A stretch of DNA of 64,000 nt, taken from positions 531,510-595,509 of the forward strand of contig CAVXRL010000007.1 in the NCBI GenBank assembly GCA_963764225.1. Direction: 5' to 3'. The DNA comes from an uncultured Actinomycetes bacterium. GTDB taxonomy: Bacteria; Actinomycetota; Thermoleophilia; UBA2241. The position numbers and the translations under genes are program-made. Under the pieces are notes generated by a model. It searched no databases and was not told the DNA's origin. It saw only the letters and a program-made list of their open reading frames with translations. Shown piece by piece: positions 22,193-53,551 of the stretch. How positions within the stretch are numbered: position 1 is the stretch's first letter; every line of letters starts with the position of its first letter.

Positions 22193-22251
22193 CGCCGTCC
22201 TCCTCGTCGCTCCGGCTCCAGCCGTACTGCCCTTGCCTGTATCCTATCTGC

Positions 22252-22734
22252 ATGCCTGACGAGCAGGACCCCTTCATCGGTGTCGTCAGCGACACCCACG
22301 GCTACTACGACCCGCAGCTGGATGAGCTGCTGGCCGGCGCCGTGCGCATCATCCACGCCGGCGACATCGGCACCCAGGAGGTGCTCACTCGCCTGCGGGC
22401 GATCGCCCCGACGACCGCCGTGCTCGGCAACACCGACCTGCCGTACTGGGACGAGAGCCTGCCGTGGGAGACGGAGGTGCGCGAGCTCGGCCTGCGCATC
22501 CTGCTGTGCCACATCGGCAAGAGCCTCATGGGGCGGCACGACCCGGTGGCCGAGGGCTACGACCTCGTGATCAGCGGTCACAGCCACAAGGCGGCGGTGG
22601 AGTGGCGGGAGCAGACGCTGTTCCTCAATCCCGGCGCGGCCGGCAAGGCCCGGTTCGGCCTGCCGCGCACGCTCGCGCGCGTCACCGTGAGCGCGGAGGG
22701 GCGTCCCGTTCCCCAGATCGTCGAGCTGGGGTAA
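22252..22734 (+). CDS. Metallophosphoesterase (YfcE-like)
   Basis: GVVSDTHG, HAGDIG, GNTD and SGHSH motifs. Confidence 0.75.
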   Translation: MPDEQDPFIGVVSDTHGYYDPQLDELLAGAVRIIHAGDIGTQEVLTRLRAIAPTTAVLGNTDLPYWDESLPWETEVRELGLRILLCHIGKSLMGRHDPVAEGYDLVISGHSHKAAVEWREQTLFLNPGAAGKARFGLPRTLARVTVSAEGRPVPQIVELG

Positions 22735-22784
22735 GGGGCGGGGCCGGTCCGTGCGGGAAGGGCGCGAGCCGGCCTCCCGGCCGC

Positions 22785-37233: not shown

Positions 37234-37246
37234 TCCTCCGCTCTCG

Positions 37247-38443
37247 TCAGGCGCTCGGGGCGCGGTTTGCGATCTCGTCGCCGAAGCCCTCGAGGATCGA
37301 GAGGAAGGCGCTCGGGCTGGTCTGGCCGAGGCCGCACTTCGAGGCGACCTGCATGGTGGCGGCGAGGTCCTTGACGCTCTTGAGGAACTCGGGCGGGCAC
37401 TCGCCCTTCTTGAGGAGCTTGACGGCCTCGAGCATCTGGGGGTTGCCCAGACGGCACGGGGTGCACTGGCCGCAGCTCTCCTCGACGAAGAAGTCGAGGA
37501 AGTTCTCGGCCACGTCGAGGATGTCGCGGTCGGGGCCGATGACCATCACCGAGCCGCCCGTCGGGATGTCCTCGAACGCCAGAGCGCGCGTGAAGTCCCT
37601 TGCGGGGACGCACACGCCGCTGGCGCCGCCGATCTGCACCGCCTTGGCGCCCTCACCGCCGACCTCCCTGAGCAGGTCGGCCACGGTGATGCCCCACGGG
37701 AACTCGTACACGCCGGGCTTCTCGCAGTCGCCGCTGATGCTGAACAGCTTGTAGCCGGTCGACTTGTCGGTGCCGAACGTCTTGAACCAGTCACAGCCCC
37801 GGCAGAAGATCGCCGCCACCGAGGCGAGCGTCTCCACGTTGTTCACCACGGTGGGGTTGTTGAGCAGGCCGGCGACCACCGGGAACGGCGGGCGGTTGCG
37901 CGGCTCGCCGCGGAAGCCCTCGAGGCTCTCGATGAGGGCCGTCTCCTCGCCGCACACGTAGGCGCCGGCGCCCATGGCCACGAGGATGTCGAAGTCGAAG
38001 CCCTCGACGCCCATGATGTTGCGCCCGAGCAGGCCGGCCGCGCGCCGCCGCTGGATGACCTCGTTGAGGTGCGGGCGCAGGTAGGTGTACTCGGCGCGCA
38101 GGTAGACGATGCCGAGGGTCGCGCCGATGGCGCGGCCGCCGATGGTCATGCCCTCGAAGACGAGGTCGGCGAACCGCGTGAGGATGACCCGGTCCTTGAA
38201 CGTGCCGGGCTCGCCCTCGTCGGCGTTGCAGATGATGTACTTCTGGTCGGCCTTCTCCGCCGCGCAGAAGCCCCACTTCATGCCGGTGGGGAACCCGGCG
38301 CCGCCGCGGCCCTTGAGGCCGCTGTCACGCATGAAGTCGACGAGGTCGGCGCGGCTCATGGCCAGGGCGGCCGTGAGGCCGGCCTCGGCCTCGATGGTCT
38401 CGTAGGTGAGGGCGTTGCCCTGCGTCTCGATCGTGGCAGGCAT
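37247..38443 (-). CDS. hydB: Hydrogenase NADH-binding flavoprotein subunit HydB (NuoF-like, short form)
   Basis: [20 protein letters not shown] and ESCGQCTPCR motifs. Confidence 0.85.
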   Translation of the reverse strand: MPATIETQGNALTYETIEAEAGLTAALAMSRADLVDFMRDSGLKGRGGAGFPTGMKWGFCAAEKADQKYIICNADEGEPGTFKDRVILTRFADLVFEGMTIGGRAIGATLGIVYLRAEYTYLRPHLNEVIQRRRAAGLLGRNIMGVEGFDFDILVAMGAGAYVCGEETALIESLEGFRGEPRNRPPFPVVAGLLNNPTVVNNVETLASVAAIFCRGCDWFKTFGTDKSTGYKLFSISGDCEKPGVYEFPWGITVADLLREVGGEGAKAVQIGGASGVCVPARDFTRALAFEDIPTGGSVMVIGPDRDILDVAENFLDFFVEESCGQCTPCRLGNPQMLEAVKLLKKGECPPEFLKSVKDLAATMQVASKCGLGQTSPSAFLSILEGFGDEIANRAPSA

Positions 38444-38446
38444 CGC

Positions 38447-38947
38447 TCACGCCTCCTTCGACGCGGCCCGGCAGGCGGCCACGATCTCTTTGGCGGTCTC
38501 GGGAGTGACCCGCGTGTGGACTTCGTCGTTGACGAGCAGAGCGGGGCCCTGGTCGCACATGCCGACGCAGCTGGCCCACTCGAGCGTGAACAGGCCGTCG
38601 TCGGTGGTCTGGTCGAAGTCGATGCCGAGCTCGGTCTTGAGCGCGTCGGCGACGGCGTCCTTGCCGGCGAAGTCGCACGAGAGCGTGCCGCACAGGCGCA
38701 CCACGAACTGCCCGGTGGGGGCGCCGTGGAGGAACGCGTAGAACGACGCGACGCTGTAGACCTCCACGGGGTGGATGTCGAGCACGTCGGCGATGGTCTG
38801 CATGGTCTCCGAGTCGATCTCGTGGAACCGCCTCTTGACATCCGCGAGGATCGGGATGAGAGAAGAGCGGCCGGGGCCGAGCTTCTCGACGAGGCTCTCC
38901 ACCTCGGCCCTGAGCTGGTCCTGATTGGTGATGATGGTCGCTGGCAT
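38447..38947 (-). CDS. hydC: Hydrogenase subunit HydC (NuoE-like 2Fe-2S thioredoxin-like)
   Basis: C-x4-C ... C-x3-C (CGTLSCD ... CVGMCDQGP). RBS GAGAGGA lies before the ATG at 38947. A GTG at 38962 is an alternative start. Confidence 0.8.
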   Translation of the reverse strand: MPATIITNQDQLRAEVESLVEKLGPGRSSLIPILADVKRRFHEIDSETMQTIADVLDIHPVEVYSVASFYAFLHGAPTGQFVVRLCGTLSCDFAGKDAVADALKTELGIDFDQTTDDGLFTLEWASCVGMCDQGPALLVNDEVHTRVTPETAKEIVAACRAASKEA

Positions 38948-38958
38948 CTGGAGTCCTC

Positions 38959-39332
38959 TCACTGCTCGAGGAGCTTCTTGACCTTGGCGACCAGCGTCTG
39001 AGGCTCCACCGGCTTGGGCTGGAACTCATCGACCGGCACGATCTCGCCGTCCTTGTCGATGTTGAGGCCCATGGCGGCGTTGACGCTGGTGAGCATGATG
39101 ATCGGCAGCTCATTACCGTTCTTGCGGATCTCGCGCGCCATGCGGAGGCCGTCGTCGGGCTCTTCCATCATGACGTCGAGGATGAGGAGGTCGGGCTTGA
39201 CCTCATCAAGCTTCTTCATGCCGTCGGCGCGATTGGCTGCGCCGATGATCTCGTAGCCCTCGCGCTCGAGGACCAGGCGGCCGGCATCGACGATGTCCGG
39301 GTCGTCGTCAATGATGAGAATCTTTGGCACCA
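38959..39332 (-). CDS. Single-domain response regulator (CheY-like REC), GTG start
   Basis: KILIIDDDPDIVDAG...LILDVMMEEPDDG...KP. Confidence 0.7.
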
Positions 39333-39702
39333 CGCTCTCCTCTGTCCGTTTGCGTTCCCCCGGGGCGGGGTCGGCCCGCCCTCCACAAGCCCGATCCACT
39401 GCCCGGTCCCGCACCCATCCCGGAGAGACCGCTGCGCGGCAGGGACGGGTGGAGGAAGGACGATCGGTCAGGCCACACACTCCACTGGATCAACGGCAAG
39501 AACTTGGCCTCAAATCCGCTCATTTTCTAACACATCAACGGCAGCTTGTGCAAGGGTGCACGAGCGTCTGAAGTTAGTATCGCACATCCTCGAACAGGCA
39601 CAAGCCGTACCTTCTGGCGAGGTGAGGGAGACGATTGTGGACAGCTCGGAGTGCGCGGCGGGGAAGAGGCGACGCCGGGGCGGCCCTTGACGCGGCGAAG
39701 CC

Positions 39703-40933
39703 TCAGAGTTGGGGCGCCGCCGCGGTCGCGGCGTCGGCCGCCGGCTCGGCCGGCCTGGCCGGCCCCTCCGGCCGCGCGTCGTGCAGCGTGACGGTGAAGG
39801 TGCTGCCGACGCCGGGCTCGCTCTTCACCGTCGGCCTCGCCGTCGTACATGTTGGCGATCTTGCGCACCGTGCTGAGGCCGAGGCCGCTGCCGAGGATCT
39901 TGACCGTCTGCTCGTTCTTGATGCGCGTGAACTCGTTGAACAGCTTGCCGGCCTCTTCCGCGCTGAGCCCGATGCCCGTGTCGCTCACGGTGACGACCGC
40001 CGCGTCGCCCTTGCGGCTGAGCGTGACCTTGACGTCGCCGCCGTCGCGGTTGTACTTCACGGCGTTCGAGATGAGGTTGTTCAGGACGATCTCGACCTCG
40101 CCGGGGTCGGCCTTGAGCTCGACGTCCGGTCCGTCCGCGAGCTCCACCGTGATGCCCCGGCGCTCGGCGTCGACGGCGAACAGTTCCATCGACGCGCGCG
40201 CGAGCTCGCGCAGGTCCACGCGCCTGATGACGCGCTCGCGCTGCCCGGACTCGATGCGCGTGAGGTCGAGCAGGTCCATGATGAGCTTCTTCATGCCGTC
40301 CACGCGCACGATGCTGCGCTCCACCATCTGCAGGTTCTGGTCGGCCTCGGTGGTGCGCAGGATGTTGAGGTAGCCCTCGACGGCGTTGAGCGGCGCCTTG
40401 AGCTCGTGCGCGAGCACCGAGATGAAGTTGAAGCGGATCTCGCGCTTCTCCTCGGCGAGCTTGCGCGCCTGCTTGCTCAGGATGAGCTGGCTGGTCGCCT
40501 TGCGCAGCGCGTAGCGCAGCTCCTCGGGCGTGAAGGGCTTGGCGAGGAAGTCGTAGGCGCCGAGCTTGGTGGCCTTGACCGCCGTCTCGAACGTGGCGTA
40601 GGCCGTGATCATGATGGTGAGGACCTCGCGGCCCTGGGCGCTCATGGCGTCGAGCACGTCCATGCCGCCGACGCCCGGCAGCTTGAGGTCGAGCAGCAGC
40701 AGGTCGACCTCGCCGCCCTCGCCGAGCCACGTCAGGTAGTCCTCGCCGCTGGTGAAGTAGCGGAACTCGTAGTCGGCGTCGACGAGCACGTCGGCCACGT
40801 GCACCCTGTACTTCTGGATGATGCGGCGGACGCCGAGGCAGAGCGCCTCCTCGTCGTCGACCATGACGACCTTGAGGGTGACCTGCTGCGGGTCCATGAG
40901 GCTCTCGCGCGCGGTCGGGTCAGGAGAGTTCAT
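39703..40933 (-). CDS. Hybrid response regulator-histidine kinase (REC-HisKA-HATPase); apparent frameshift near 39835 in the HATPase C-terminus
   Basis: REC (VVMVDDEEAL...LLLLDLKLPG), HisKA (FISVLAHELKAPLN), HATPase (NLISNAVKY...DTGIGL...GSGLGLSTVRKIANMYDGE). In-frame junk follows. The +1 frame gives ...VKSEPGVGSTFTVTL... ending at TGA 39703. Confidence 0.65.
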
Positions 40934-40935
40934 GA

Positions 40936-42990
40936 TCAGCTCCCGGTGATCTCCTGCAGGCTGGCCGGGACGTCGGTGGGCGCCTCGTACCGGGGCAGGG
41001 AGATGCTGAAGGTGGTGCCGGTGGGGCCCTTGGCGGGGTCGGCGTTGGACTCCACGCCGATCTGGCCGCGGTGCATCTTGACGATGCCGTGCGTGACGGC
41101 GAGCCCGAGCCCGGTCCCCTTGCCGACCTGTTTGGTCGTGAAGAACGGGCTGAAGAGCTTGTCCAGGTTCTCGGGGGGGATGCCCGTGCCCTCGTCCTGC
41201 ACCGTGATGAGGACGTGCTCGTCGGTACCGTCGAGCTTGACGAGGATCTCGCCTCCGTCCGGCATGGCGTGCTGGGCGTTGGTGAGCAGGTTGGTGAGCA
41301 CCTGGACGATCTGGTCGCCGTCGAGCTCGGCGACGGGGTCCTCGAGGTGGTCGACGACCTGCACGGAGACGCCCTCGGCGACGGGCAGCGTGCGCATGAC
41401 CTCGGCGACGAGGCTGGTGACGTCGGTGGGCTGGCGCACCACCCGGCTCTGGCGGGCGAAGTTGAGCAGGCCGGAGATGATCTTCTTGCAGCGGTTGGCC
41501 TGGTCGACGATGAGCTTGACGTCGTCGGCCTCCTGGGAGTCGACCTCGCAGTCCTCGAGCAGCAGGTTGGCGTGCAGGAGGAGGATGCCGAGCGGGTTGT
41601 TGACCTCGTGGGCGATGCCGGCCGCGAGCTGGCCCATGCTGGCGAGCTTCTCGCTCTTGACCAGGGCCTCCTTGGTGGTCTCCAGCGAGTGGTTGGTCTC
41701 CTGCAGTTCGTCGACCGTCTTGCGCAGCTCCTCGACGGAGTACGGCAGGCACATCTCCACCTCGGCCAGGCCCTGCCAGATGGCCACCGCGTGGTGGCGG
41801 CAGGTGTCGTACCCGCAGGCCCCGCAGTCGAGCTCGTCCTCGGGGCCGTACTTGTTCATGCGCGCGAGGATCTCCTCGACCTCCTCGCCGGACGGCATGT
41901 CGTCGAAGCGCTGGTCGAACGGAGCGAAGGTGCGCGAGAGGTCCACGTCGGCGAACTCGGCGACCGCGGCCTCCCACGCCGCCTGGTCGAAGGCGCTCTG
42001 GCGGCGGCGCGTCTCCTGGCTGACGTCCGAGCGGCGTTTGAAGACGGGGTCCTCGCAGCTGAAGCCGGCGCCCATGATGCAGCCCTCGCAGCAGAGGATG
42101 TCGAGCAGCCGGGCCTCGGTGTCGCCGTGCTCGAAGTCGGTGATGGCCTCCACCAGGTTCTGGCGGCCGTCGGCGCTGACGATCTCGCCGTCCAGCAGGT
42201 CTTCTTCGAGATCGGCGGCCTGGAGCAGGCCGCGCGTGATGGGGAAGAGGGCGCCGAGGCTGCCGTGCGGCGGGTCGAAGTCGTCGTCGCCGCCGTCGCG
42301 CCCCGTGAGGCGGATGCCGTTCGAGGCGAGCAGGGTGCGCAGCTCGACGTAGGTGAGCGCCGCGTGGACCTCTCCCTCGAACTGCTCGTAGCGCGCCTCG
42401 CCCTTCTTGGCGATGCACGGGCCGATGAACACGACCCTGAGGTCCGGCCCGTGCTTCTTGTGCAGCACGCGCGCGATCGCGAGCATCGGCGAGACGATGG
42501 GCGCCAGGTTGTCGAGGATGCCGGGGTTGTACTTGCGCACGTAGCTGACGACGGCGGGGCAACTGGTGGCGATGTGCCGGCCGTCGCTCTCCTCGAGCAG
42601 GCGCGCGTACTCGGCGGCCACGAGGTCGGCGCCGAAGCTCACCTCGTGGACCTGGGCGAAGCCGAGGTCGCGGAGGGCGCCGACCAGCGCCGCCGTGTCG
42701 CACTCCGTGAACTCGGCCGGGTAGCTCGGCGCCACGATGGCCGCGACGGGAGCGTCACCGGCCAGCAGTCCCTCGGTGTCCTCGATGCCGCTGAGCACCT
42801 GCTTGGCGTTCTGGCTGCAGATGGTGACGCAGTTGCCGCAGCCGATGCAGCGCGTCTGGATGACGCTCGCCTGCCCGTCGAGGATCTGGATGGCCTTGGC
42901 CGGGCACTCGCGCACGCAGGTGTAGCAGCGGCGGCACTTCTCCCGGATCGTCGTGACCAGCTGGAGGTAGGGGACCTTGTCTTCGTTCAT
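40936..42990 (-). CDS. Sensory [FeFe]-hydrogenase-like protein fused to a histidine kinase (group C3-like HydS-HK): 2x[4Fe-4S]-H-domain-Cx2Cx4Cx16C-HisKA-HATPase
   Basis: CRRCYTCVRECP and CIGCGNCVTIC; H-domain variants TSCPAVVSY, GPCIAKKGE and CCEGCIMGAG; CGACGYDTCRHHAVAIWQGLAEVEMC; HisKA AHEVNNPL; HATPase LTNLLTNAQHAM...DEGTGI...GTGLGLAVTHGIV. Stop TGA overlaps the start region of the next gene. Confidence 0.85.
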   Translation of the reverse strand: MNEDKVPYLQLVTTIREKCRRCYTCVRECPAKAIQILDGQASVIQTRCIGCGNCVTICSQNAKQVLSGIEDTEGLLAGDAPVAAIVAPSYPAEFTECDTAALVGALRDLGFAQVHEVSFGADLVAAEYARLLEESDGRHIATSCPAVVSYVRKYNPGILDNLAPIVSPMLAIARVLHKKHGPDLRVVFIGPCIAKKGEARYEQFEGEVHAALTYVELRTLLASNGIRLTGRDGGDDDFDPPHGSLGALFPITRGLLQAADLEEDLLDGEIVSADGRQNLVEAITDFEHGDTEARLLDILCCEGCIMGAGFSCEDPVFKRRSDVSQETRRRQSAFDQAAWEAAVAEFADVDLSRTFAPFDQRFDDMPSGEEVEEILARMNKYGPEDELDCGACGYDTCRHHAVAIWQGLAEVEMCLPYSVEELRKTVDELQETNHSLETTKEALVKSEKLASMGQLAAGIAHEVNNPLGILLLHANLLLEDCEVDSQEADDVKLIVDQANRCKKIISGLLNFARQSRVVRQPTDVTSLVAEVMRTLPVAEGVSVQVVDHLEDPVAELDGDQIVQVLTNLLTNAQHAMPDGGEILVKLDGTDEHVLITVQDEGTGIPPENLDKLFSPFFTTKQVGKGTGLGLAVTHGIVKMHRGQIGVESNADPAKGPTGTTFSISLPRYEAPTDVPASLQEITGS

Positions 42991-43008
42991 GGCACTGCCA
43001 CCGTCACG

Positions 43009-43416
43009 TCAGTCCGCGCCGGCGAGCAGCTCGCTCACCTTGGCGAGGAGCGCCGGTGCGTCGATGGGCTTGTCGAAGTAGGCGTCGACGTTCATCTCGG
43101 CGAGGTCCTCGTCCGAGCCGGGGCGGAAGTTGAGGCCGAGCGCGCTGCTCACCGACGTGCTGATGATGATGGGCACGTGGGCGGTGCGCGCGTCGCTCTT
43201 GAGGCGGGCGGCGAAGGAGAATCCGGCGTCGATGCTCGTCATCATGAGGTCGGTGATGACGAGGTCCGGGGCCTCCTCGTCGATGCGCGTCTGCGCCTCG
43301 ACCGGGTTGGTGGCGGTGACGACGCGGTAGCCGGCTCCCTCGAGGATGAAGCGGTTGATCTCGAGGAAGTCGAAGTCGTCGTCGACGATGAGTATCAGTG
43401 CCTGCTGTCCGCTCAT
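43009..43416 (-). CDS. Single-domain response regulator (REC)
   Basis: LILIVDDDFDFLE...LVITDLMM...KP. Confidence 0.75.
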   Translation of the reverse strand: MSGQQALILIVDDDFDFLEINRFILEGAGYRVVTATNPVEAQTRIDEEAPDLVITDLMMTSIDAGFSFAARLKSDARTAHVPIIISTSVSSALGLNFRPGSDEDLAEMNVDAYFDKPIDAPALLAKVSELLAGAD

Positions 43417-43537: not shown

Positions 43538-45316
43538 TCAGACGCGGTCGTGCTCGAAGTAGTGGGTGTGCAGGAGGTGGTGCGAGATCTCGCCGCACGG
43601 CGCCCCGAGGTACTCCTCGTACAGGGCGCAGACGGCGGGATTCTCGTGCGACTTGCGCAGCTCGCGGCCCTCGTCCTCGCGGTAGATCGCCTCGATGCGC
43701 TTCCTGCGCACCTCGTTGGTGGTGAAGCGCGGCTGCCCGCCGCCGCCGATGCAGCCGCCGGGGCAGGTCATGACCTCGACGAAGTGGTACTCGGCCTCGC
43801 CGCTCTTGATCTGGTCGATGACCTTCTGCGCGTTGCCGAGCCCGTGGGCCACGGCGACCTTCAGGTCGGCGCCCTCGAGGAACGCCCAGTCTCCCTTGGC
43901 TCCCTCGACCTTGACGGTCGCCACCTTCACGCCGTCGAGGCCCTCGATGGGCTGGACGTGCAGGTCGGGGAAGGGGAACGGGGTCTCGGTGACGATCTCC
44001 CAGGCCGTGCGCAGGGCCGCCTCCATGACTCCGCCCGTGTTGGCGAAGATGTCGGCGGCGCCGGTGCTGATGCCGAGCGGCGCGTCCATCTGCTCGTCGG
44101 GCAGGCTGCGGAAGTCGATGCCGGCCTGCTTGATGAAGGCGCCGAGCTCGCGCGTGGTGAGCACGATGTCGACGTCCTGCACGCCGCTGTCGTTCATCTC
44201 GGGACGTGCCGCTTCGTACTTCTTCGCCGTGCACGGCATGACCGAGACCACGACCATGTCCTTCGGGTCCACGCCGATCTTCTCGGCGTAGTAGGTCTTC
44301 GCGATGGCTCCGAACATCTGCTGCGGGCTCTTGCAGGTGCTCAGGTTGTCGAGCATGTCGGGGTTGAAGTGCTCCATGTAGTTGATCCAGCCCGGGGAGC
44401 AGCTGGAGAACTGCGGCAGGGCGACCTGCTCGCCGTCCACGAGGGCCTTCTTGAGCCGCACGAGCAGCTCCGTGCCCTCCTCCATGATCGTGAGGTCGGC
44501 GGTGAAGTCCGTGTCGAACACGGCGTCGAAGCCGAGGCGGCGCAGGGCGGCGACCATCTTGCCGGTCACCAGGGTGCCGGCCGGGTAGTCGAAGCATTCG
44601 CCGAGAGCGGCGCGGATGGCCGGCGCGGTCTGGACGATCACCGTCTTGCCCGGGTCCTCGAGCGCCGCCCAGACGTCGTCGATCTGATTGCGCTCGGTGA
44701 TCGCGCCCACCGGGCAGACGGCGGCGCACTGGCCGCACTGCACGCACACGACGTCGCTCAGGTTCTGGGCGAACGCCGGGCCGATGAGGGTGGCGAAGCC
44801 GCGGCCCTGGGCGAACAGGCCGCCCACCTGCTGGACCTCGTTGCACACCGTGACGCAGCGGCGGCAGGCGACGCACTTGCCGGTGTCGCGGATGAGCGCC
44901 GGGGTGCTGTCGTCCACCATCCTGAGGGTCTTCTCGCCCTCGTACCGGAGGTCGCCGATGCCGAGGTCCTCGGCCAGCGTGCGCAGCTCGCAGTCGCCCG
45001 AGCGGGAGCAGGTGCGGCAGTCGCCGTCGTGCTCGGAGAGCAGCAGTTCGACCACCATCTGGCGCGCGTCGCGCACCTTGCCGGTGTTGGTCTTGACGAC
45101 CATGCCGTCGGTGGCCGGCTGGCTGCACGAGGCGACGAGGGAGCGAGCGCCCTCGACTTCCACGAGGCAGACGCGGCAGGCGCCGATGGACTGGACGTCT
45201 TCGAGGTAGCAGAGGGTCGGCACCTTCACGCCCGCCTGTCTGGCGGCCTGAAGCACCGTGGTGCCCTCGGGGACCTCGACGGTGATCCCATCAATGGTGA
45301 GGGTAGGCATGGTCAT
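43538..45316 (-). CDS. hydA: [FeFe] hydrogenase catalytic subunit HydA (set 2)
   Basis: 592 aa from MTMPTLTIDG. H-cluster motifs SSCSPGW, MPCTAKK and EVMTCPGGCIGGGGQP, plus N-terminal ferredoxin domains. Confidence 0.9.
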   Translation of the reverse strand: MTMPTLTIDGITVEVPEGTTVLQAARQAGVKVPTLCYLEDVQSIGACRVCLVEVEGARSLVASCSQPATDGMVVKTNTGKVRDARQMVVELLLSEHDGDCRTCSRSGDCELRTLAEDLGIGDLRYEGEKTLRMVDDSTPALIRDTGKCVACRRCVTVCNEVQQVGGLFAQGRGFATLIGPAFAQNLSDVVCVQCGQCAAVCPVGAITERNQIDDVWAALEDPGKTVIVQTAPAIRAALGECFDYPAGTLVTGKMVAALRRLGFDAVFDTDFTADLTIMEEGTELLVRLKKALVDGEQVALPQFSSCSPGWINYMEHFNPDMLDNLSTCKSPQQMFGAIAKTYYAEKIGVDPKDMVVVSVMPCTAKKYEAARPEMNDSGVQDVDIVLTTRELGAFIKQAGIDFRSLPDEQMDAPLGISTGAADIFANTGGVMEAALRTAWEIVTETPFPFPDLHVQPIEGLDGVKVATVKVEGAKGDWAFLEGADLKVAVAHGLGNAQKVIDQIKSGEAEYHFVEVMTCPGGCIGGGGQPRFTTNEVRRKRIEAIYREDEGRELRKSHENPAVCALYEEYLGAPCGEISHHLLHTHYFEHDRV

Positions 45317-45327
45317 GCTCTCCTTGC

Positions 45328-48300
45328 TCACGAGCCGTACTTGCCGTAGTCGCAGCGCAGGCAGCGCTTCGCCTCGGCGACCGCGACCTCCGCGGCCCAG
45401 CTCAGCTCGACCTCGTCGAAGTTGGTGACGCGGGCGCCGACGGCCAGTTCCTCGACCGCGTGGCGCTCGACGAACGCGGGGTCGGCGTCGGGGTCGAAGA
45501 ACGTCGGCGGCTCGATGTCGCGCCGCCAGAAGGCGTGGTTGACGCCGGTGAGGAGCTCGTCCATGGCGACGGCGGCCTTCTCGCCGGCGCCGATGGCCTC
45601 GACCACCGACGACGGACCGGTCGCCGCGTCGCCGCCGGTGAACACCCAGTCGACGCTCGTCTGGCCGGTGTCCGGGTCGGCGCCGAGGTAGCCCCAGCGG
45701 TTGAGCTCGACGGGGGTGCCGTCCAGCACGGCCGGCGCGTCGAGCTTCTGCCCGATCGCGGCGATGACGGTGTCGGCCTCGACCACGAAGTCGGGGTTGT
45801 GGCCGGCCACCGGACGGCGACGGCCGCTGCGGTCGTAGTCGCCCAGCGCCATCTCCTTGCAGCGCACGCCGGTGACGTTGCCGCTCGCGTCGCGGAGGAT
45901 CTCCTCCGGCGCGACGAGCGTCATGATGTCGATGCCCTCGAGGTCGGCGGCGTCGATCTCCTCGCCCCACGCCGGCATCTGCGCGCGCGTGCGGCGGTAG
46001 AGGATCCTGACGCTCTCGGCGCCGAGGCGCAGGGCGGTGCGGGCGGCGTCGATGGCCGCGTTGCCGCCGCCGATGACGGCGACGTTCTTGCCCACTTCGC
46101 CCTTGCCGCTGACGTTGTACTCCTTGAGGAAGGAGAGGCCGTCGTACACGCCCGGGCCGTCTTCGCCCGGGACGCCGATGCCGGCGCCCTGCGGGGCGCC
46201 GACGCCGACGAACACGGCCTCGTAGCCCTCGTCCCGGAGGCTCTGCAGCGTGAAGTCCTTCCCGAGCGCCTTGCCGTACTCGAAGCGCGCGCCCATGGAC
46301 TCGATCATCCTGACCTCGCGCTCGAGCTCGGGACGCGGCAGGCGGTAGGCCGGGATGGCCTGGACCAGCATGCCGCCGGCCTTGGGCTCGGCCTCGAACA
46401 CGACCGGCTTGTAGCCCAGCCGCGCGAGGAAGTAGGCGGCGGAGAGGCCGGCCGGCCCGGAGCCGACGACCGCGACCTTGCGCGCGGCGTTCTCGGCGTT
46501 CTCCACGACCTCCGGAAGCTGGATCTCCTCCTCCTGCTCCACCATGAAGCGCTTGACGTGGCGGATGGCGAGGGCGCCGTCGAGGCTGGAGCGCATGCAC
46601 TTGCTCTCGCAGGGGTGGAAGCAGACGCGGGCGCAGACGCTGGCGAGCGGGTTGCGCTCGCGGTGCAGCTTGAGCGCCTCGTCGTAGCGCTGCTCGCCCA
46701 CCAGGCTCACGAAGCCGGGGATGTTGACGCTGGCCGGGCACGCGTTGGAGCAGCGCGCCTTGAACAGCGTCGAGCAGACGCCGGCCTCGCAGTACTTGTC
46801 CTTGATGTGGGCCTCGTACTCGTGGCGGAAGTGGCGGATGGTGCTGAGCACCGGGTTGGGGGCCGTCTGGCCGAGGCCGCAGAGCGCGGTCTGGCTGATG
46901 GACTCGCCGAGGGCGATGAGACGCTCGATGTCGCCCTCCTCGCCCTCACCGTTGCAGATGCGCTCGACGATCTCGAGCATCCGCTTGGTGCCGACGCGGC
47001 AGGGCGGGCACTTGCCGCAGCTCTCTTCCTGCGTGAACTCGAGGAAGAACCGGGCGATGTCCACCATGCAGGTGTCCTCGTCCATGACGATGACGCCGCC
47101 GGAGCCCATGATCGCGCCGAGCTCCTGCAGGGTGGCGTAGTCCACCGGCACGTTGAGGTGCTCCTTGGGGATGCAGCCGCCCGAGGGACCGCCGAGCTGG
47201 GCGGCCTTGTACGCCTTGCCGTTCGGGATGCCGCCGCCGACCTCGTAGATGAGCTCGCCGAGCTGCATGCCGATCGGGACCTCGACGAGGCCGGTGTGCT
47301 GCACGTTGCCGCCGAGCGCGAACACCTTGGTGCCCTTGCTGCTCTCGGTGCCGGTGCTGGCGTACCAGGCCGACGCCCTTGAGGATGATCGGCGCGATGT
47401 TGGCGAAGGTCTCGACGTTGTTGAGCACGCTGGGCTTGCCCCAGAGGCCGCTGACGGCCGGGAACGGCGGGCGCGGCCGCGGCTCGCCGCGGTGACCCTC
47501 GATCGAGGTCATCAGCGCGGTCTCCTCGCCGCAGACGAAGGCGCCGGAGCCCATGCGGATCTCGAGGTCGAAGTCGAAGCCCGAGCCCATGATGTCGTTG
47601 CCGAGCAGGCCGTACTCGCGCGCCTGCCCGAGCGCGTGCTCGAGGCGCTCGACGGCGAGCGGGTACTCGGCGCGCACGTACACGTAGCCCTGGTGCGCGC
47701 CGATCGCGAAGGCGCCGACGACCATGCCCTCGATCAGCGAGTGCGGGTCGCCCTCGAGCACGGAGCGGTCCATGAACGCGCCCGGGTCGCCCTCGTCGGC
47801 GTTGCAGAGGATGTACTTGACGTCGTTGTCCTGCTGCTGGGCGAAGCGCCACTTCATCCCGGTGGGGAACCCGGCGCCGCCGCGGCCGCGCAGGCCCGAG
47901 GCGAGGACTTCTTCGACGACCTGCTCGGGGGTCATCGCGGTGAGCACCTTGGCGAGGGCCTGGTAGCCGTCGCGGGCGATGTACTCGTCGATGTTGAGGG
48001 GGTCGATGATGCCGGAGTTGCGCAGCACGATCTTGACCTGGCGGTTGAAGAACGGGATGTCGTCCATCTCCGCCTGCGTCCGCTCGGTGCCGGGCGCGTG
48101 ACTCACGAGACGCTCGACGACGCGGCCCTTGAGGAGGTGCTCCTCGACGAGCTCGGGCACGTCGTCGACCTTGATGTTCTGGTAGAACACGCCGTCCGGG
48201 TAGACGAGCGCCACGGGGCCCTGCACGCAGGGGCCGAGGCAGCCGGTCTCGACGACGTCGACCTCGCCGGCGAGCTCGCGAGCCTTGAGCTCCTCGCGCA

Positions 48301-48382
48301 CCGCCTTGCTCACGTCGAGGGCGCCGGAGGCGATGCAGCCGCCGCCGGTGCAGATGAGGAAGTGACTTCTCACGTCAGCCAT
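45328..48382 (-). CDS. hydB: HydB (NuoF-like flavoprotein with N-terminal thioredoxin-like domain) fused to a C-terminal GltD-like FAD/NAD(P) oxidoreductase domain; one apparent frameshift near 47327
   Basis: N-part is ORF 46946..48382 (...[13 protein letters not shown]...[10 protein letters not shown]...[10 protein letters not shown]). C-part is ORF 45328..47325 (...[20 protein letters not shown]...[10 protein letters not shown]..., then [22 protein letters not shown]...[15 protein letters not shown]...). Shifting the frame by +1 at the aagggcg/tcggcc junction restores ...[29 protein letters not shown]. Confidence 0.75.
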
Positions 48383-48399: not shown

Positions 48400-48771
48400 T
48401 CAGGTCTTGATGAGGTAGGCCTCGACGGGGGTCCCGCCGACGAGGTGGTTGACGACGATGGTGTGCACTCTGGCCTTGTCGAGCAGGCCGTAGCGGTAGG
48501 TCCTGCCGTCGGACAGGGTCAGGGTCGCCATCGGCTCCTGTTCGCAGAGTCCGGCGCAGCCGGACTGGTGCAGGCTGGCGGAGGTGACGCCGTTGGCCGA
48601 GAGCTCGGTCATGAACGCGGCCACGATCTCGCGCGCGCCGGCGGCGATGCCGCAGGTGCCCATGTGCACGGTCACCTGCGTCTCCTTGCGGCCGGAGCGG
48701 AGGTCGATGTCGGCCTTCGCCTTCTCGGCCAGTGCCTTGAGCTGGTCGGGGCTCGTGATCCGGTCGGTCAT
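48400..48771 (-). CDS. Thioredoxin-like [2Fe-2S] ferredoxin (HydD-like small hydrogenase subunit)
   Basis: 123 aa with CGIAAG...CAGLC. ATG overlaps the hydC2 stop (ATGA). Confidence 0.65.
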   Translation of the reverse strand: MTDRITSPDQLKALAEKAKADIDLRSGRKETQVTVHMGTCGIAAGAREIVAAFMTELSANGVTSASLHQSGCAGLCEQEPMATLTLSDGRTYRYGLLDKARVHTIVVNHLVGGTPVEAYLIKT

Positions 48772-49307
48772 CAGGCGCTCCTCTCTACAAGGGCCGGCTC
48801 CTCGGCGTACTGGGCGAGGATCTCGTTGACGCGCTTGGGCTTGACCCGGTGGTGCACGTCGTCGTCGACCATGATCACCGGGGCGAGGCCGCAGGCGCCG
48901 AAGCAGCGGCCGATCTCCAGGGAGAACTGACGGTCCTCGGTGGTGCCGCCGATGTCGATGCCGAGTTCTTTCTTGAAGGCGTCCATGACGGCGACGCCGC
49001 CGCGCACGTAGCAGGCCGTGCCCAGGCAGATGCGGACGAGGTGCTTGCCGCGCGGGACGGTGGTGAAGAAGGAGTAGAACCCCACCACGCCGGCCACTTC
49101 GCTGTACGGTTTCCGCAGCTCGCGTGCGATGTGCTTGAGCGCGACCTCCGGCAGGTAGCCGAAGATGCCCTGGGCGAGCTGCAGCACGGGGATCAGGGCC
49201 CCGGGCTTGCCCCTGTACTCGGCGATGACCGCGTCGAGGCGCTCGAGGAGTTCCTCCTCGGTCGGCTCCTCGGTGCAGCATGCGCACTGGTTGACTGCTT
49301 CAGCCAT
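48771..49307 (-). CDS. hydC: Hydrogenase subunit HydC (NuoE-like 2Fe-2S), set 2
   Basis: ...CLGTACYVRG...CFGACGLAP. Confidence 0.8.
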   Translation of the reverse strand: MAEAVNQCACCTEEPTEEELLERLDAVIAEYRGKPGALIPVLQLAQGIFGYLPEVALKHIARELRKPYSEVAGVVGFYSFFTTVPRGKHLVRICLGTACYVRGGVAVMDAFKKELGIDIGGTTEDRQFSLEIGRCFGACGLAPVIMVDDDVHHRVKPKRVNEILAQYAEEPALVERSA

Positions 49308-49362: not shown

Positions 49363-49858
49363 TCAGCCAGCGCTCTCTGGAACAGCGGTGAGTTCCGAGA
49401 AGCGTGCCGGTATGTCCGGGCCGCGCAGGGTGGTGCGCGACCCGTCGTCTTTGAGGTCGACCCGGAACTCGATCTCCGGGTTGGTGGCGAACATCGCGGC
49501 GATGGAGGCGGCCACGTCGCCCAGCGGCGGGCGGTCGACGTTGGCGAGCCGCATGTGCGCGGTCGACGCAGACCCCGCCGAGCTCGCCGGACCGCCCCAC
49601 GGTGAGGCCGCCGCCGGCGGCCTCGGCCGCCTGCCGGAAGAGGCTGAGGCCGAGGCCCGTCTTCTTGTCGCTCTTGGTGGTGAAGAACGGGTCGAGGGCC
49701 TGCTCCGGTTCCACCGGCAGGCCCGGCCCGTCGTCCTCGACGCGCATCGTGAGCTCGTCCGCCGCGCGGTCGGCGACGATGGTCGTGGCGATCACCGTCG
49801 CCCCGGCGCGCACCGAGTTCTCGAGGATGTCGAGGAGGTAGAGCGAGAGGTCATGCAT
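49363..49858 (-). CDS. Histidine-kinase-like ATPase (HATPase_c-only) protein typical of hyd operons; apparent frameshift near 49560
   Basis: MHDLSLYLLDILENSVRAGA...VEDDGPGLPV...DKKTGLGLSLFRQAAE...GRSGELGG in frame 1 (ORF 49193..49858). C-terminus ...MRLANVDRPPLGDVAASIAAMFATNPEIEFRVDLKDDG... in the adjacent frame (ORF 49363..49554). Confidence 0.6.
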
Positions 49859-50590
49859 CGCCGATGCGCCTGCCTTCGCGGCCGTGGATGGCGAGCGCCA
49901 GCTCGTCGAAGCCGGGGCGCTCGCACGTGACGGCCGTGCGCGTGGCGCCCACGTCGGTCACGTAGTGGGCGTCGGACGAGTGCAGCACCGGGAGGCCGTG
50001 GACCTTGAACCCGGCCTCCTGCTCCGAGCCGGCCGGCACGTGGCGCGAGAGCTCCACCGCGTCGAACCCGGCCTCGTCCGGGAAGAAGCCCAGCTGGCCG
50101 ATGACCCCGAAGCTGGGGCGGTCGATGTGCGCCGCCACGGCGATGCCGCCGTGCCGGTGCACCAGGGCGACGGCGGCGTCCACGCTCAGCAGCGTGGCGG
50201 TGGCGAGCGCCAGTGTCTCGCGGCCGGTCTCCAGCCCGGCCGCGTCCAGCAGGCGCTGCTCGCCGAAGAACGTCTCGTAGTCCTCGTCGGCCGGGCCCAG
50301 CGTGGCCCCGACCTCCGCGCCGGCCGCCTCGGCGGCCGCGGCGTCGGGGAAGAGCCCCACCACGTGGCACTCCTCCACGGTCGTGATCTCCATGCCGGCG
50401 AGCACGCACAGGTGCTCGCCGGCCGCCTCCTGGACGGCGGCGACGTTGCGCGCGCTGTTGTGGTCGCAGACGGCGATCATCCCCAGCCCCTCAGTGAGCG
50501 CCGATCCCACGATCACCGGCGGGGTCATCGCTTCGTCCGCGCACGGCGAGAGCGCGGTGTGCACGTGCAGGTCTGCGAAGCAGATGTTCA
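49851..50590 (-). CDS. PHP-domain (polymerase/histidinol-phosphatase-like) protein, GTG start
   Basis: ADLHVHTALSPCAD...AVCDHNS...HIDRP...HSSDAH metal-ligand pattern. Confidence 0.7.
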
Positions 50591-50937
50591 CGCATGGGTC
50601 CCCTTGACGCCCAGGGCGTACAGGCGGCCGACGACGTCGAACGTGTCGGCCGGGGAGGAGTAGAGGGCCAGGCCCTCGGCCACCGCCTTGCCGAGCACGT
50701 CGTCCTCGGGCTTGCGGCCGCCGGCGAACACCACGGCGGCGAGCTCGGCGTGGCTGGCCACGGCGATCACGTTGAGGTGGACCTGCAGGGTGACCAGGAG
50801 CCCGCCCTCCGGGGCGTGCGCCAGCACGTCACTCAGCAGGTCGGACGCGTAGCCTCGTTCGATGTCCGCATCTTTGGCGCCGGAGACCTCCGGCGTGAGC
50901 TCCGCGAACCCGAGCTCGCTGGCGATGTCCTCGAGTC

Positions 50938-52504
50938 TCATCTCGCGCTCTCCTCCTCCACACGGGCGGTGTATGGACAGAGCGCGCGCGTGGCGCGCCC
51001 CATGACGACGTCCTCGGCGAGCGCGGCGCACGTGGGCGCGCCGCAGACGCCGCAGTCGCGACCGGGCAGCGCCCGGCTCTCTTCGTCGAGCTGGGCGAGC
51101 TTGCGGATGGCGGTCGCCATGTCCGCGTCCAGGCGGATGCCGGGCCGGGCGCGGAACGGCCGCGTGCGCGTGTGGCTGCCGCCGCCGCCCGGAGCGCCGC
51201 CGCCGCCGGCGGCCCAGCGCCAGGCCGCCACCGACGTGTCCTCGGCGAGCAGCGGGGTGCCGAAGCAGCCGCCGTCGCAGATGTACGGCTCCACGACCGC
51301 GACGCCGGGCAGCCGGCCGTCCTCGACCGCCTCGAGCACCGCGAGCACGTGGGCGACGCCGCTGACCACGAGCAGGTCGTCCGCTCCGACGCGCCTGCTG
51401 TGGGGAGGCGTCGCCGGGCGTGCGGAGCGCGCGCGCCGAGAGCCGCGGCAGCACCGCTTCGCGGACGGCCGCGGCCGTCACCGTGTCGCGCTGCGCCGTG
51501 GGCCGCTGCGAGAGCAGCGCCGTGCGCTGGCTCGGGCAGGACACGGCGAAGGTGGCGCTGCGCCCGTCGAGCTCGAGCTGCGCCGCCTCCCAGGGCGACG
51601 CGAGCGGCGCGAGGTGGTCGAGCAGCGAGGGGAACTTGACCTCCACGAGGCTGACGACCGCCGGGCACACCGGCGAGATCACGGGCGCCGGGCCGTCGCC
51701 GGTGGTGGCGAGGTCGATCAGCTCCCGGCGCAGGTCGTCCTCGTAGCGGTGCACGGAGACGACCTCGTCGTAGCCGAGCCCGAGGAGCTCCTCGACCACC
51801 TCGGGCACGGAGTGGTCGCCGAAGCCGGCGAGGAGCGCCGGTGGGACCACGAGCACGTCCCCGCCGGCGAGCGCGCCGGGCACGTCCTTCATCGTGAGCG
51901 CGCGCGGCGCGCAGGCGGCGATGCACGCGGTGCAGTCGATGCAGAGGTGGTCGAGCACGTGCGGCCGCGCGTCCCGCACGCGGATCGCGGCCGTCGGGCA
52001 GGCGACCAGGCAGTGGCGGCACTCCTTGCAGAGCGCGGCGTCCACGCCGAGCGAGGAGGGCCGCGCGCCCTGGTCCGCGGCCTCCGGCCGCAGCGACACG
52101 GTGAAGCTGACGCGCGTGCCGGCGCCGGGCGCCGAGGTGACCCGGAGCCGGTCGCTGTTGCGCAGGATGTTGGGCAGGCCCATGCCCGCGCCGAACCCGA
52201 GCGCGCGGGCCTCGGCCGAGGCCGTCGACCAGCCCTCGCGCATGGCCGCGTCCACGTCCGTCATGCCCGGGCCCTCGTCCACGACGTCCACGTCCAGCTG
52301 GCCGTCGCTCACGGCCGCCTCCAGGCGGCCGCCGCCCCGGGCGTGGATGACCACGTTCATCTCGGCCTCGTAGGCGGCGATCATGGCGCGCCGCACGGCG
52401 TCGCTCTCGGCGCCGATCCGCTTGAGGTGCTGCTTGAGGTCGCGGGAGGCAGCGCCCGCGCTCGTGAAGTCCCCGCAGCGGATGTCGTAGGCCAGGTGCT
52501 CCAT
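50938..52504 (-). CDS. RsbW-like serine-kinase/HATPase domain fused to ferredoxin and a degenerate [FeFe]-hydrogenase H-domain with C-terminal Cys cluster; apparent frameshift near 51410
   Basis: N-terminus MEHLAYDIRCGDFTSAGAASRDLKQHL...NVVIHARGG (anti-sigma/serine-kinase fold). CKECRHCLVACP and CIDCTACIAAC. H-domain relics SPVCPAVVSLV and VSCPSQRTA. C-part in another frame (ORF 50938..51369): ...VAVVEPYICDGGCFGTP...RDCGVCGAPTCAALAEDVVMGRATRALCPY. Confidence 0.65.
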
Positions 52505-52507
52505 GCG

Positions 52508-53551
52508 TCAGGAGACGCGCTCTCCGTCGAGCGCCGCGTAGATGAGGCCGCAGGTCTCGAAGACGCCCTGCGGCGAGACCATGAGCAGCGTGTCGTTGTC
52601 CTGGGCGAGCTGCACCATCTCGGCGTCCGGTTGGACGCCGTTGACGAAGCAGATGCCCGGCACGTCCATGAGCTCCGCGACGCGCAGCATCTGCACGCTG
52701 GCCAGGTTGCTCACCAGCAGCGTCTTGTCCGACGCCTCGTTGAGCAGGTCGCTGACGCGGTCGCCGGCGTAGACCTTGGCGACACTGGTGCCGCCGGGCT
52801 TGCCCGGAGTCACCAGGTGGGCCCCGATGGTGGCGGCCAGTTCCTCGAGCTTCATGTTCGACCTCGCGAGCAGGGATTCCAGTTCCTTGACGATGGGTCC
52901 GATGTCGCCGCTCCCGTTGGGCTGCGGCTCGGCGCGGCTGCTGAGCCGCGCGAAGTAAGCGGCCGACTCGAGCGCCGCCGTGATGTCCATGTACTCGACG
53001 AAGATCTCGTTGGGCAGGGCGAGCGGCGTGGGGGCGAAGCTGATGATGCTCTTGACCCCCGCGCGCACGAGCACGTCCGCGACCTCCTGGGCCGCCGTGC
53101 CGGGAACGGTGAGCACGGCGATCTGGATGCCGAGGTCGCGCACCAGTCCTTCCATGCGCGCGACGTCGAAGCAGCGCACGCCGTGCACCAGGGTGTCGTC
53201 GAGCGCCGGGTCGCTGTCGAACGCGGCGACGATGGCGACCGACGGGCTCTTCTCGGCGAAGTGCGAGAGCACGGCGTGCCCGAGGTTGCCGGCACCCACC
53301 AGCACGACCTCCTGGCGCACCGAGCCGTCGAGGAAGTGCGTGATGCTCTCGATGCAGGCGGCCACGTCGTAGCCCTTGTTGGGGCTGCCGGAATAGCCGA
53401 TCTCCATGAGGTCGCGGCGCACCTGGGCGGCGCTGACGACGGCGTGACGGGCGAGCTGGTGGGAGTAGATGCTCTCGACGCCGTCGGCCTGGAGGGATTG
53501 CAGCAGCCGCCGGTAGCGGCTCATGCGCGATACGGTCTTCCTCGATACCAC
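52508..53551 (-). CDS. rex: Redox-sensing repressor Rex fused to a C-terminal DRTGG-like domain
   Basis: Rex winged helix (SRYRRLLQSL...) plus Rossmann domain (VLVGAGNLGHAV...). Then about 140 extra residues (...KVYAGDRVSDLL...GICFVNGVQP...) resembling DRTGG-domain proteins found in hyd clusters. Confidence 0.75.
   Translation of the reverse strand: MVSRKTVSRMSRYRRLLQSLQADGVESIYSHQLARHAVVSAAQVRRDLMEIGYSGSPNKGYDVAACIESITHFLDGSVRQEVVLVGAGNLGHAVLSHFAEKSPSVAIVAAFDSDPALDDTLVHGVRCFDVARMEGLVRDLGIQIAVLTVPGTAAQEVADVLVRAGVKSIISFAPTPLALPNEIFVEYMDITAALESAAYFARLSSRAEPQPNGSGDIGPIVKELESLLARSNMKLEELAATIGAHLVTPGKPGGTSVAKVYAGDRVSDLLNEASDKTLLVSNLASVQMLRVAELMDVPGICFVNGVQPDAEMVQLAQDNDTLLMVSPQGVFETCGLIYAALDGERVS

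Follow-up and report, generated by a model that had tools for sequence, protein, structure and literature searches.

The gene hydB2 lies on the minus strand (45328-48382) of a 64,000-nt stretch of contig CAVXRL010000007.1 (assembly GCA_963764225.1) from an uncultured Thermoleophilia-like actinobacterium; this whole stretch is referred to here as the window. The product of hydB2 is the flavoprotein subunit (beta, BfuB-type) of a HydC-HydD-HydB-HydA [FeFe]-hydrogenase, designated set 2 to separate it from a second hydrogenase of the window (set 1). The protein contains a GltD-like module, which appears to stand where the flavoprotein subunits of canonical bifurcating hydrogenases have a ferredoxin-like domain.

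The initial annotation described hydB2 as one open reading frame (ORF) of about 1018 codons running without a stop through this interval. The interval is 3055 nt long, a length indivisible by 3, and the ORF list holds two overlapping minus-strand ORFs in different frames, 48382-46946 (478 aa, with an ATG start) and 47325-45328 (665 aa). Frame A encodes good NuoF sequence followed by an arginine-rich out-of-frame stretch, and frame B directly resumes the same conserved NuoF motif. When one base is omitted (c at 47368, within the GGCC at 47368-47371), a protein of 1017 aa and a stop results, which accounts for the figure of 1018. The +1 frame change at ~47369 separates residues 338 and 339 within the NuoF core and is not at the NuoF/GltD junction. 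It divides the gene into a 5′ part in frame A (47369-48382, residues 1-338, aligned to HydB of Acetobacterium woodii, 7q4v_B) and a 3′ part in frame B (45328-47367, residues 339-1017 and the stop). The break anticipated as grounds for rejecting the fusion, a stop between the NuoF and GltD parts, is absent, as the ORF at 47325-45328 carries the NuoF C-terminus and the GltD part in one frame.

DNA alignment with three intact orthologous genes (91-94% nucleotide identity) gave a single gap column, located at this GGCC, and three further loci concur on the surplus base (six intact loci altogether: L001, L003, L004, L007, L008 and L009). Intact 1017-aa orthologues, 93-95% identical, were found in many metagenomes and metagenome-assembled genomes (MAGs) labelled Thermoleophilia or Actinobacteria, several of them from anaerobic digesters, and the gene order at their loci is identical to that of the window. 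The hydB2 protein is a near-identical copy of a protein already in databases.

Domain architecture of the repaired HydB2 protein

Pfam searches with the repaired 1017-aa protein recovered 2Fe-2S_thioredx (residues 7-81), Complex1_51K (161-330, 7e-45), SLBB (354-402) and NADH_4Fe-4S (441-525, 1e-34), followed in the C-terminal half by Fer4_20 (528-619, 7e-21) and Pyr_redox_2 (635-933, 6e-30). This architecture agrees with the NuoF-like core and GltD-like domain named in the initial annotation. Residues 1-543 align end to end with A. woodii HydB (7q4v_B; 8e-241 by phmmer and 61% identity by Foldseek), and they also match the B subunits of Thermoanaerobacter kivui and Thermotoga maritima HydABC, NiFe-HydABCSL, StnABC and NfnABC. 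No single solved chain was found to span both halves of the protein; Foldseek finds them separately, with a best TMq of 0.46.

The core begins with a thioredoxin-like [2Fe-2S] domain (48140-48364, minus strand, by Pfam) whose Cys11, Cys16, Cys48 and Cys52 are invariant in 27 homologues. This is followed by the flavin mononucleotide (FMN)/NADH domain (47393-47902, minus strand, by Pfam) and by the NuoF [4Fe-4S] domain that holds cluster B1 (46807-47061, minus strand; residues 441-525 with Cys455/458/461/501), identified by Pfam and conservation. A hinge or linker common to canonical HydB, StnB and NfnB of the Bfu family closes the core (46759-46833, minus strand; residues 517-541), as delimited by alignments. 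The Bfu-family BfuB subunit was defined by four InterPro domains, including a ferredoxin-type one (Schut et al., 2022). The NuoF FMN-binding, SLBB and NuoF [4Fe-4S] domains of this definition (IPR011538, IPR019554, IPR019575) are present in HydB2 as their Pfam equivalents.

Sequence criteria that separate bifurcating from non-bifurcating HydB have also been published (Losey et al., 2020). T. maritima HydB aligns with HydB2 without gaps, and its residue numbers equal those of HydB2 plus 30. On this scale A202 and M204 of HydB2 are of the bifurcating type (Ala or Glu at T. maritima position 232 and Met at 234), and set-1 HydB has T and K. Moreover, the invariant GGPSG at residues 397-401 (T. maritima 427-431) is of the bifurcating type, and the corresponding sequence in set-1 HydB is GGASG. 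A further criterion, Phe or Tyr at T. maritima position 367, finds no aromatic residue at that position with the +30 offset, and the published numbering is irreconcilable with the alignment. If the position in GAGA[F/Y]VCGEE (Nqo1 Y180) is meant, HydB2 has F282, as do all five bifurcating structures, and set 1 has Y. Judged by its sequence, the region of residues ~1-541 is a complete bifurcating-type HydB core with all mappable published signatures.

At the C-terminus of canonical bifurcating HydB/BfuB stands a domain like bacterial ferredoxin, whose two CX2CX2CX3CP motifs correspond to clusters B3/B4. In StnB and HydB this B3/B4 domain is the proposed ferredoxin site and is tethered by a Zn-stabilised linker (PMC10482914). 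The structure of Thermococcus sibiricus NfnABC places ferredoxin between the B3/B4 domain and the C subunit's mobile C-terminal domain (PMC12018979). The CX2CX2CX3CP motif is absent from HydB2, and Fer4_20 is the only Fer4-family Pfam match in the protein. By motif and Pfam search, the C-terminal ferredoxin-type domain of the BfuB definition (IPR017896) is missing; since the definition includes this domain, the HydB2 variant falls outside it and outside the survey that used it. Canonical HydB can be followed through the hinge, which in A. woodii reads EYEAHIRDKKCPAGVC, to about residue 541, where the GltD module begins. Because the hinge is kept to ~541, the ferredoxin-like domain is gone and the module begins at that point, the GltD module is read as a replacement of the ferredoxin-docking domain at the same tether point and not as an add-on. 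The initial annotation had overlooked this replacement of the 2x[4Fe-4S] ferredoxin-like domain, which is the mechanistically important point.

The module (residues 543-1013) matches the GltD-like region (~103-568) of the large subunit of Caldicellulosiruptor saccharolyticus NfnABC (9bov_A, E-values of 7e-108 and 6e-107), as well as Sporomusa ovata StnABC (8oh5_C), T. sibiricus NfnABC (9n5u_A) and T. maritima NfnB (4ylf_B). Comparison with Nfn- and Stn-type enzymes, of which NfnB was named at the outset, was apt: the best solved matches are the NADPH modules of NfnABC and StnABC together with NfnB. The module opens with a GltD-type 2x[4Fe-4S] subdomain (46525-46755, minus strand; residues 543-619) that contains Cys544/548/587/591/595 and Lys610. 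The Rossmann domains for flavin adenine dinucleotide (FAD) and NADP(H) come next (45583-46479, minus strand; residues 635-933), with GSGPAG at 640-645, GGGNAA at 771-776 and YRRT at 795-798. A permuted C-terminal segment (45352-45429, minus strand; residues 985-1010, NFDEVELSW...AKRCLRC) supplies Cys1007 and Cys1010.

Both dinucleotide-fold motifs singled out from the sequence are real, the 14-residue one being found at residues 640-653 and the 10-residue one at 771-780. By the published criterion of GxGxxG for FAD and GxGxxA for NADP(H) (PMC7483475), the first is an FAD motif (G640-x-G642-x-x-G645) and the second is of the NADP(H) type (G771-x-G773-x-x-A776). Both are conserved as in NADPH-bound homologues, and so is the YRRT that follows the second Rossmann strand.

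The last ~30 residues of HydB2 (NFDEVELSW...AKRCLRCDY) correspond in alignment to residues 10-43 at the N-terminus of T. maritima NfnB, whereas in StnC and NfnA their counterpart is the end of the insert (~540-568), so the HydB2 module is circularly permuted in the same way as StnC and NfnA. It begins with C-x3-CP and ends with RCLRC (1006-1010), an ending found without change in 18 diverse fusions. In StnC and C. saccharolyticus NfnA three Cys and Lys170 hold the FAD-proximal cluster, and bifurcating NfnB has Glu at this place (PMC10482914, PMC11829005). K610 of HydB2 aligns with K170 of both proteins and, by analogy with StnC/NfnA (PMC10482914, PMC11829005), would be a ligand of the FAD-proximal [4Fe-4S] cluster. 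All 27 homologues retain K610, Cys544/548/587/591/595/1007/1010, Y795-R796-R797 and the glycine motifs, and the seven invariant Cys together with K610 reproduce the ligand count of Stn. C531 and C536, which are common to canonical HydB, are more likely hinge-site residues.

The permuted topology and the Lys ligand place the HydB2 module, as far as sequence can tell, with the Stn/Nfn-Bfu kind and apart from classical NfnB and GltD. The FAD of StnC is experimentally non-bifurcating, and because of this homology the FAD of the HydB2 module most likely does no more than convert between two-electron and one-electron steps for NADP(H). Of the initial suggestion of a second pyridine-nucleotide site with transhydrogenase-like bifurcation, the first part is made credible by the GxGxxG motif for FAD and the GxGxxA and YRRT motifs for NADP(H). 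Bifurcation at the GltD flavin is disfavoured by Lys610, the permuted topology and the Stn-type character of the module.

Frame breaks in the hydrogenase region

The surplus base in hydB2 does not stand by itself. When orthologous proteins were compared with the window by tblastn, a mid-gene frame change was found in three more genes, encoding a response regulator/histidine kinase (~39832), a 164-aa HATPase_c protein (~49565) and a 522-aa HATPase/Fe-S protein (~51430, within 51420-51440). A frame plot of GC content at third codon positions (GC3) recovered the same four breaks and a fifth in hydE at ~28500 (28497-28503). In hydE the radical-SAM N-terminal part and the conserved C-terminus (DANLPATTAL...GANVVMPNLTP) lie in different frames, with an extra C in GGCCCGG. 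All remaining same-strand frame changes in the window occur at stop codons. The five breaks are all on the minus strand and are all single-base insertions; deletions, nonsense mutations and large changes are absent among them, and the broken genes are intact in orthologues. No sequence or methylation motif common to the five insertion sites was evident. When hydB2 was compared with two orthologues, the ratio of non-synonymous to synonymous substitution rates (dN/dS) was 0.06-0.2 both upstream and downstream of the break.

The insertion in hydB2 is most likely an assembly or sequencing indel in an indel-prone assembly, an explanation held with reasonable though incomplete confidence. It is the best explanation because the errors are one-sided in type, the gene bears the mark of purifying selection and the orthologues are intact, and because four neighbouring genes of the hydrogenase cluster, all within 23 kb, carry similar single-base insertions. 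Unpolished long-read MAG assemblies typically contain about one error per 10 kb. The distribution of the breaks speaks against it: all five are confined to the hydrogenase region at 28-53 kb, and no break was detected outside it (rough P ~0.02), a negative that takes in the other ~28 kb of well-coding sequence covered by the GC3 scan. This clustering keeps alive the idea of a real and recent inactivation, in which hydB2, hydE and the three regulatory genes would belong to an [FeFe]-hydrogenase regulon decaying in this strain. Such decay is a minority view here, though a serious one, and the region is evolutionarily plastic, as a related genome (L003, GCA_040768465.1, with an identical P0002 protein) is without the sensor and set-1 region downstream of hydA. 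In that genome DEAD/ResIII helicase, Macro, DarT and Eco57I-like genes occupy 14823-23054 downstream of hydA; since the window has a sensor kinase and the set-1 hydrogenase there, the hydrogenase neighbourhood varies between close relatives. Decay is harder to reconcile with five lesions that are all +1 insertions, with the low dN/dS downstream of the hydB2 break, and with the intact state of all orthologues examined. Programmed +1 ribosomal frameshifting or transcriptional slippage, which would regulate HydB2 synthesis, has as its sole support that a +1 shift restores the protein. It was effectively excluded: the surplus base is absent in six orthologous loci, including ones 94-95% identical, no slippery run, stop or hungry codon occurs at the site, the 0-frame continues open for a further 141 codons, and the same type of lesion occurs in four other genes. 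In this window hydB2 is best annotated as frameshifted, probably by sequencing error, rather than as an intact ORF.

Neighbouring genes, distribution and relatives of the fusion

Upstream of hydB2, hydC2 (48771-49307, minus strand) encodes a NuoE-like subunit with [2Fe-2S] cluster C1 (Cys94/99/135/139), and a hydD/hndB-like ORF of 122 aa (48403-48771, minus strand) has a weak thioredoxin-like [2Fe-2S] match. The HydD/HndB-like protein has only three Cys (40, 72 and 76) and may for this reason lack the [2Fe-2S] cluster. Downstream, hydA2 (43538-45316, minus strand) encodes a standard catalytic [FeFe]-hydrogenase subunit, with A. woodii HydA1 as its closest solved match (7q4v_A, 1e-195) and a score of 887 bits (cut-off 765) with NCBIfam NF040763, 'NADH-dependent [FeFe] hydrogenase, group A6'. 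The loss of a cluster ligand in HydA2 was considered, as its L1 motif reads SSCSPGW (44384-44404, minus strand, residues ~305-311), with STCKSPQ downstream, in place of the textbook TSCCP. This is not a defect, since the characterised HydA1 of A. woodii carries this variant too (SCSPGW...SCKSPQ).

Part of a conserved regulatory neighbourhood is a sensory [FeFe]-hydrogenase of the HydS type, fused to a histidine kinase (40936-42990, minus strand). These surroundings (38959-43416 and 49851-53551, minus strand) comprise the sensor, response regulators, Rex (52508-53551), a PHP protein, a DRTGG-like protein of 117 aa and HATPase proteins, and the same regulatory set was found in a Riflebacteria MAG and in other MAGs. 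The order at the locus is Rex, HATPase/Fe-S, DRTGG-like, PHP, HATPase_c, hydC, hydD-like, hydB::gltD, hydA, response regulator and HydS-type sensor kinase. This order, with hydC-hydD-hydB::gltD-hydA within it, recurs in MAGs of several lineages, among them Thermoleophilia-like ones and one of Riflebacteria.

Set 1 (35299-38962, minus strand) consists of hydC1 (38447-38962), hydB1 (37247-38443) and hydA1 (35299-37233). HydB1 was correctly described as the short form; its 398 aa make up a bare NuoF core from which both accessory domains are absent, with the non-bifurcating residues GTFKD, GAGAY and GGASG. It resembles the non-bifurcating HydABC/HydAB of Syntrophomonas wolfei and Syntrophus aciditrophicus (Losey et al., 2020), to which HydB2 is opposite in having bifurcating-type residues and extra domains. 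On these sequence features the window would hold both an S. wolfei-like NADH-only hydrogenase (set 1) and a bifurcating-type core with a swapped C-terminal domain (set 2).

Near the start of the window, two dimethylamine-methyltransferase genes of the Dimeth_Pyl/mtbB type (497-1894 and 4284-5681, minus strand) contain in-frame TAG codons at 860-862 and 4647-4649, followed by Rfam PYLIS_2 elements (763-862 and 4550-4649). Both are probably pyrrolysine-containing enzymes of this Thermoleophilia-like actinobacterium. The two are separated by an MTTB-family gene and a TetR regulator, in an interval that includes 2821-4266 (minus strand), and no tRNA-Pyl or pyl genes were seen within the window.

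At the level of the family, the NuoF-GltD fusion proposed in the initial annotation is genuine. Besides the intact 1017-aa orthologues, at least 80 species representatives of GTDB match a 236-aa junction-spanning query over its full length; these are the best 80 of 593 candidates. Among representatives clustered at 50% identity, which were searched exhaustively, about twelve clusters contain the complete fusion, the most distant at 35% identity. Carriers include Verrucomicrobiota, Planctomycetota, Spirochaetota, Armatimonadota, Chloroflexota, Syntrophales and Smithella, and among named organisms Pontiella sulfatireligans F21 (Kiritimatiellota), Pelotomaculum terephthalicicum JT and Ca. Dichloromethanomonas (both Bacillota). 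In most of those species the fusion gene is preceded by hydC and immediately followed by hydA. NuoF::GltD is combined with partners other than hydA, a NiFe hydrogenase large subunit being one, in some genomes of Desulfomonilia, Caldilineaceae, Syntrophobacteraceae and Anaerolineales. Three loci (L069, 7759-10446; L075, 8414-12077; L076, 7822-11615) have it next to a formate-dehydrogenase-like molybdopterin BfuA that is apparently split, possibly at a selenocysteine codon, and a fourth (L050, 7682-10509) has it next to an HdrA/MvhD-like protein. Because the partner varies between hydA, formate-dehydrogenase-like and HdrA/MvhD-like proteins, NuoF::GltD can be described as a modular BfuB variant. 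A separate family of ~635-663 aa (P0210, P0233, P0246, P0257, P0260 and P0268) combines the NuoF C-terminal [4Fe-4S] region with a permuted GltD (query residues ~400-1010) and probably corresponds to NCBIfam PRK12771, 'NAD(P)-binding protein'. No NCBIfam model spans the whole HydB::GltD protein.

The idea of a second NAD(P)H site in such a protein is not new. The trimeric hydrogenase of Vallitalea guaymasensis L81 (peg.3894-3896) was reported to have the same architecture and was read in the same way (Schouw et al., 2018, PMC6163223); this organism belongs to another phylum (Bacillota), and the likeness is drawn through its genome annotation only. The fusion is undescribed in papers on the Bfu family, Hydrogenedentota, digester eco-thermodynamics, Dehalobacteriia and Chloroflexi and in the review '[FeFe]-hydrogenases and where to find them'. 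It is widespread and already noted in print, and the gene in this window is a further member. In the HydDB classification, group A2 (glutamate-synthase-linked) has a neighbour with a GltD/GltA domain and without a NuoF domain (PMC5037454). As a NuoF domain is present, hydrogenase set 2 belongs to HydDB A3 and not to A2.

Compared with solved enzymes, HydB2 is similar to HydABC(D) of A. woodii (7q4v), T. kivui (8a6t) and T. maritima (7p5h) in the N-terminal [2Fe-2S] domain, the FMN/NADH site, cluster B1 and the hinge, and the operon partners are those of set 2 (HydC, HydD-like and HydA). HydB of these enzymes has the ferredoxin-like B3/B4 domain, whereas HydB2 has a GltD module of ~475 residues instead. 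The module itself is best matched by S. ovata StnC (8oh5_C), C. saccharolyticus NfnA (9bov_A) and T. sibiricus NfnA (9n5u_A). It shares with Stn/NfnABC the permuted arrangement (start C..ACP, end RCLxC), K610 in the place of K170, seven conserved Cys and the FAD and NADPH motifs. In Stn/NfnABC, however, the module is inserted in a BfuA-like large subunit after the N-terminal [2Fe-2S] domain and feeds the mid-potential path, no hydrogenase is present and the ferredoxin-like domain is kept on B. In set 2 it is subunit B that ends in the module, and subunit A carries the H-cluster domain. Additionally, C114 of StnC is Ile in HydB2, and HydB2 has an extra Cys, C583. NfnB/NfnL of NfnAB (NfnSL) from T. 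maritima (4ylf_B) and Pyrococcus furiosus (5jca_L) has the same fold with two [4Fe-4S] clusters, FAD and NADPH (1e-93). It differs in being unpermuted, with an N-terminal RCLQC and a Glu ligand where HydB2 has a C-terminal segment and Lys, and in having a bifurcating FAD partnered with NfnA. No NfnA homologue was found nearby in the window.

Proposed function of the GltD module

On balance, NADP(H) is favoured as a genuine substrate of the hydrogenase, entering through the GltD module alongside NAD(H). Whether ferredoxin is also used is the main functional question that separates the possible readings, of which an NAD(H)- and NADP(H)-linked hydrogenase appears the most likely. In such an enzyme NADP(H) would exchange hydride with the FAD of the GltD module, and the two [4Fe-4S] clusters of the module would pass single electrons to or from the BfuBC core. 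The most plausible partner in the core would be the mobile [2Fe-2S] cluster of HydC, which serves the ferredoxin-like domain in canonical enzymes; it is the natural candidate because the GltD module sits where B3/B4 sit. The FMN would handle NAD(H) and HydA would handle H2. With NADPH in the usual role of ferredoxin, the net reaction would be NADH + NADPH + 2H+ <-> 2 H2 + NAD+ + NADP+. That NADH and NADPH yield 2 H2 without ferredoxin, the simplest stoichiometry, is put forward tentatively, as one possibility among several.

The in vivo potentials of the carriers are -280 mV for NADH, -380 mV for NADPH and -500 mV for ferredoxin (Schut et al., PMC9304861). The equilibrium H2 pressures calculated from them are ~145 Pa for NADH with NADPH, against ~3 Pa with NADH as the sole donor and ~1.5x10^4 Pa for NADH with ferredoxin. 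An enzyme of the first kind could produce H2 up to a ceiling of ~10^2 Pa, which would suit low-H2 syntrophic habitats. More broadly, the HydB::GltD complexes may constitute a ferredoxin-independent Bfu class in which NADP(H) replaces ferredoxin as the low-potential partner of the flavobicluster, those with hydA being NADH- and NADPH-confurcating hydrogenases; this is conceivable but at present rather doubtful. The same caution applies to the extension of this class, by which other A subunits would turn the complexes into formate dehydrogenases or enzymes linked to Hdr. The class as a whole would be widespread among syntrophs and anaerobes of digesters.

Several observations weigh against a hydrogenase linked to NAD(H) and NADP(H) without ferredoxin. 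An AlphaFold2 model (of an intact orthologue, with 27 homologues) has a mean predicted local distance difference test (pLDDT) score of 71.7 and a predicted template modelling (pTM) score of 0.44, and with this low pTM and with the hinge and Fe-S loops below 50 it does not fix where the GltD module lies against the core. Distant fusion clades have Glu, His or Gly for Lys, and YRRT varies. The putative NADP(H) specificity is drawn solely from motif conservation, and a literature search found no biochemical characterisation of any member of the HydB/NuoF-GltD family, only the Vallitalea genome note. Moreover, the homologous cluster pair of NfnB is its ferredoxin-reducing site (PMC10482914), so ferredoxin could still be a substrate. 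It might dock at the distal GltD [4Fe-4S] cluster, as in NfnB, or elsewhere, and the enzyme would then link four substrates, H2, NAD(H), NADP(H) and ferredoxin.

Such a four-substrate enzyme is given roughly one chance in four. Besides the precedent of NfnB, it is supported by the retention of all bifurcating signatures (the flavobicluster ligands, the HydC [2Fe-2S] cluster, GGPSG, A202/M204 and F282) and by C583, an NfnB-like extra Cys that is absent from StnC and invariant in the HydB2 clade. It is at odds with the experimentally seen ferredoxin site, which is formed with the ferredoxin-like domain that HydB2 is missing, and K610 and the permuted topology mark the module as the non-bifurcating, non-ferredoxin-reducing one of Stn/Nfn-Bfu. 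A link to glutamate synthase was also considered, in which the module would act as a true GltD and pass H2-derived electrons to the large subunit GltB, as suggested by the homology to GltD (2vdc_G, 2e-60), by Schouw et al. (PMC6163223) and by the description of HydDB group A2 (PMC5037454). This was rejected and is very improbable: no gltB was found in the neighbourhood in the window or at any inspected orthologous locus, and the module is far nearer to Nfn/Stn (365 bits) than to GltD (208 bits), with the permuted topology and Lys ligand of the former. The NuoF domain, moreover, assigns the hydrogenase to A3 rather than A2.

If GltD truly replaces the ferredoxin-binding domain, HydB2 and its relatives would be a natural experiment on the mechanism of Bfu-type bifurcation, testing whether the FMN/[4Fe-4S]/[2Fe-2S] flavobicluster can couple to NADP(H) in place of ferredoxin. 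Set 2 would then represent a type of hydrogenase with an H2 threshold between those of the two known NADH-linked types, which bears on models of interspecies H2 transfer; the habitats concerned are anaerobic digesters, sediments and guts. The relevance would extend beyond hydrogenases, as the NuoF::GltD subunit is paired in other genomes with formate-dehydrogenase-like and Hdr-like partners.

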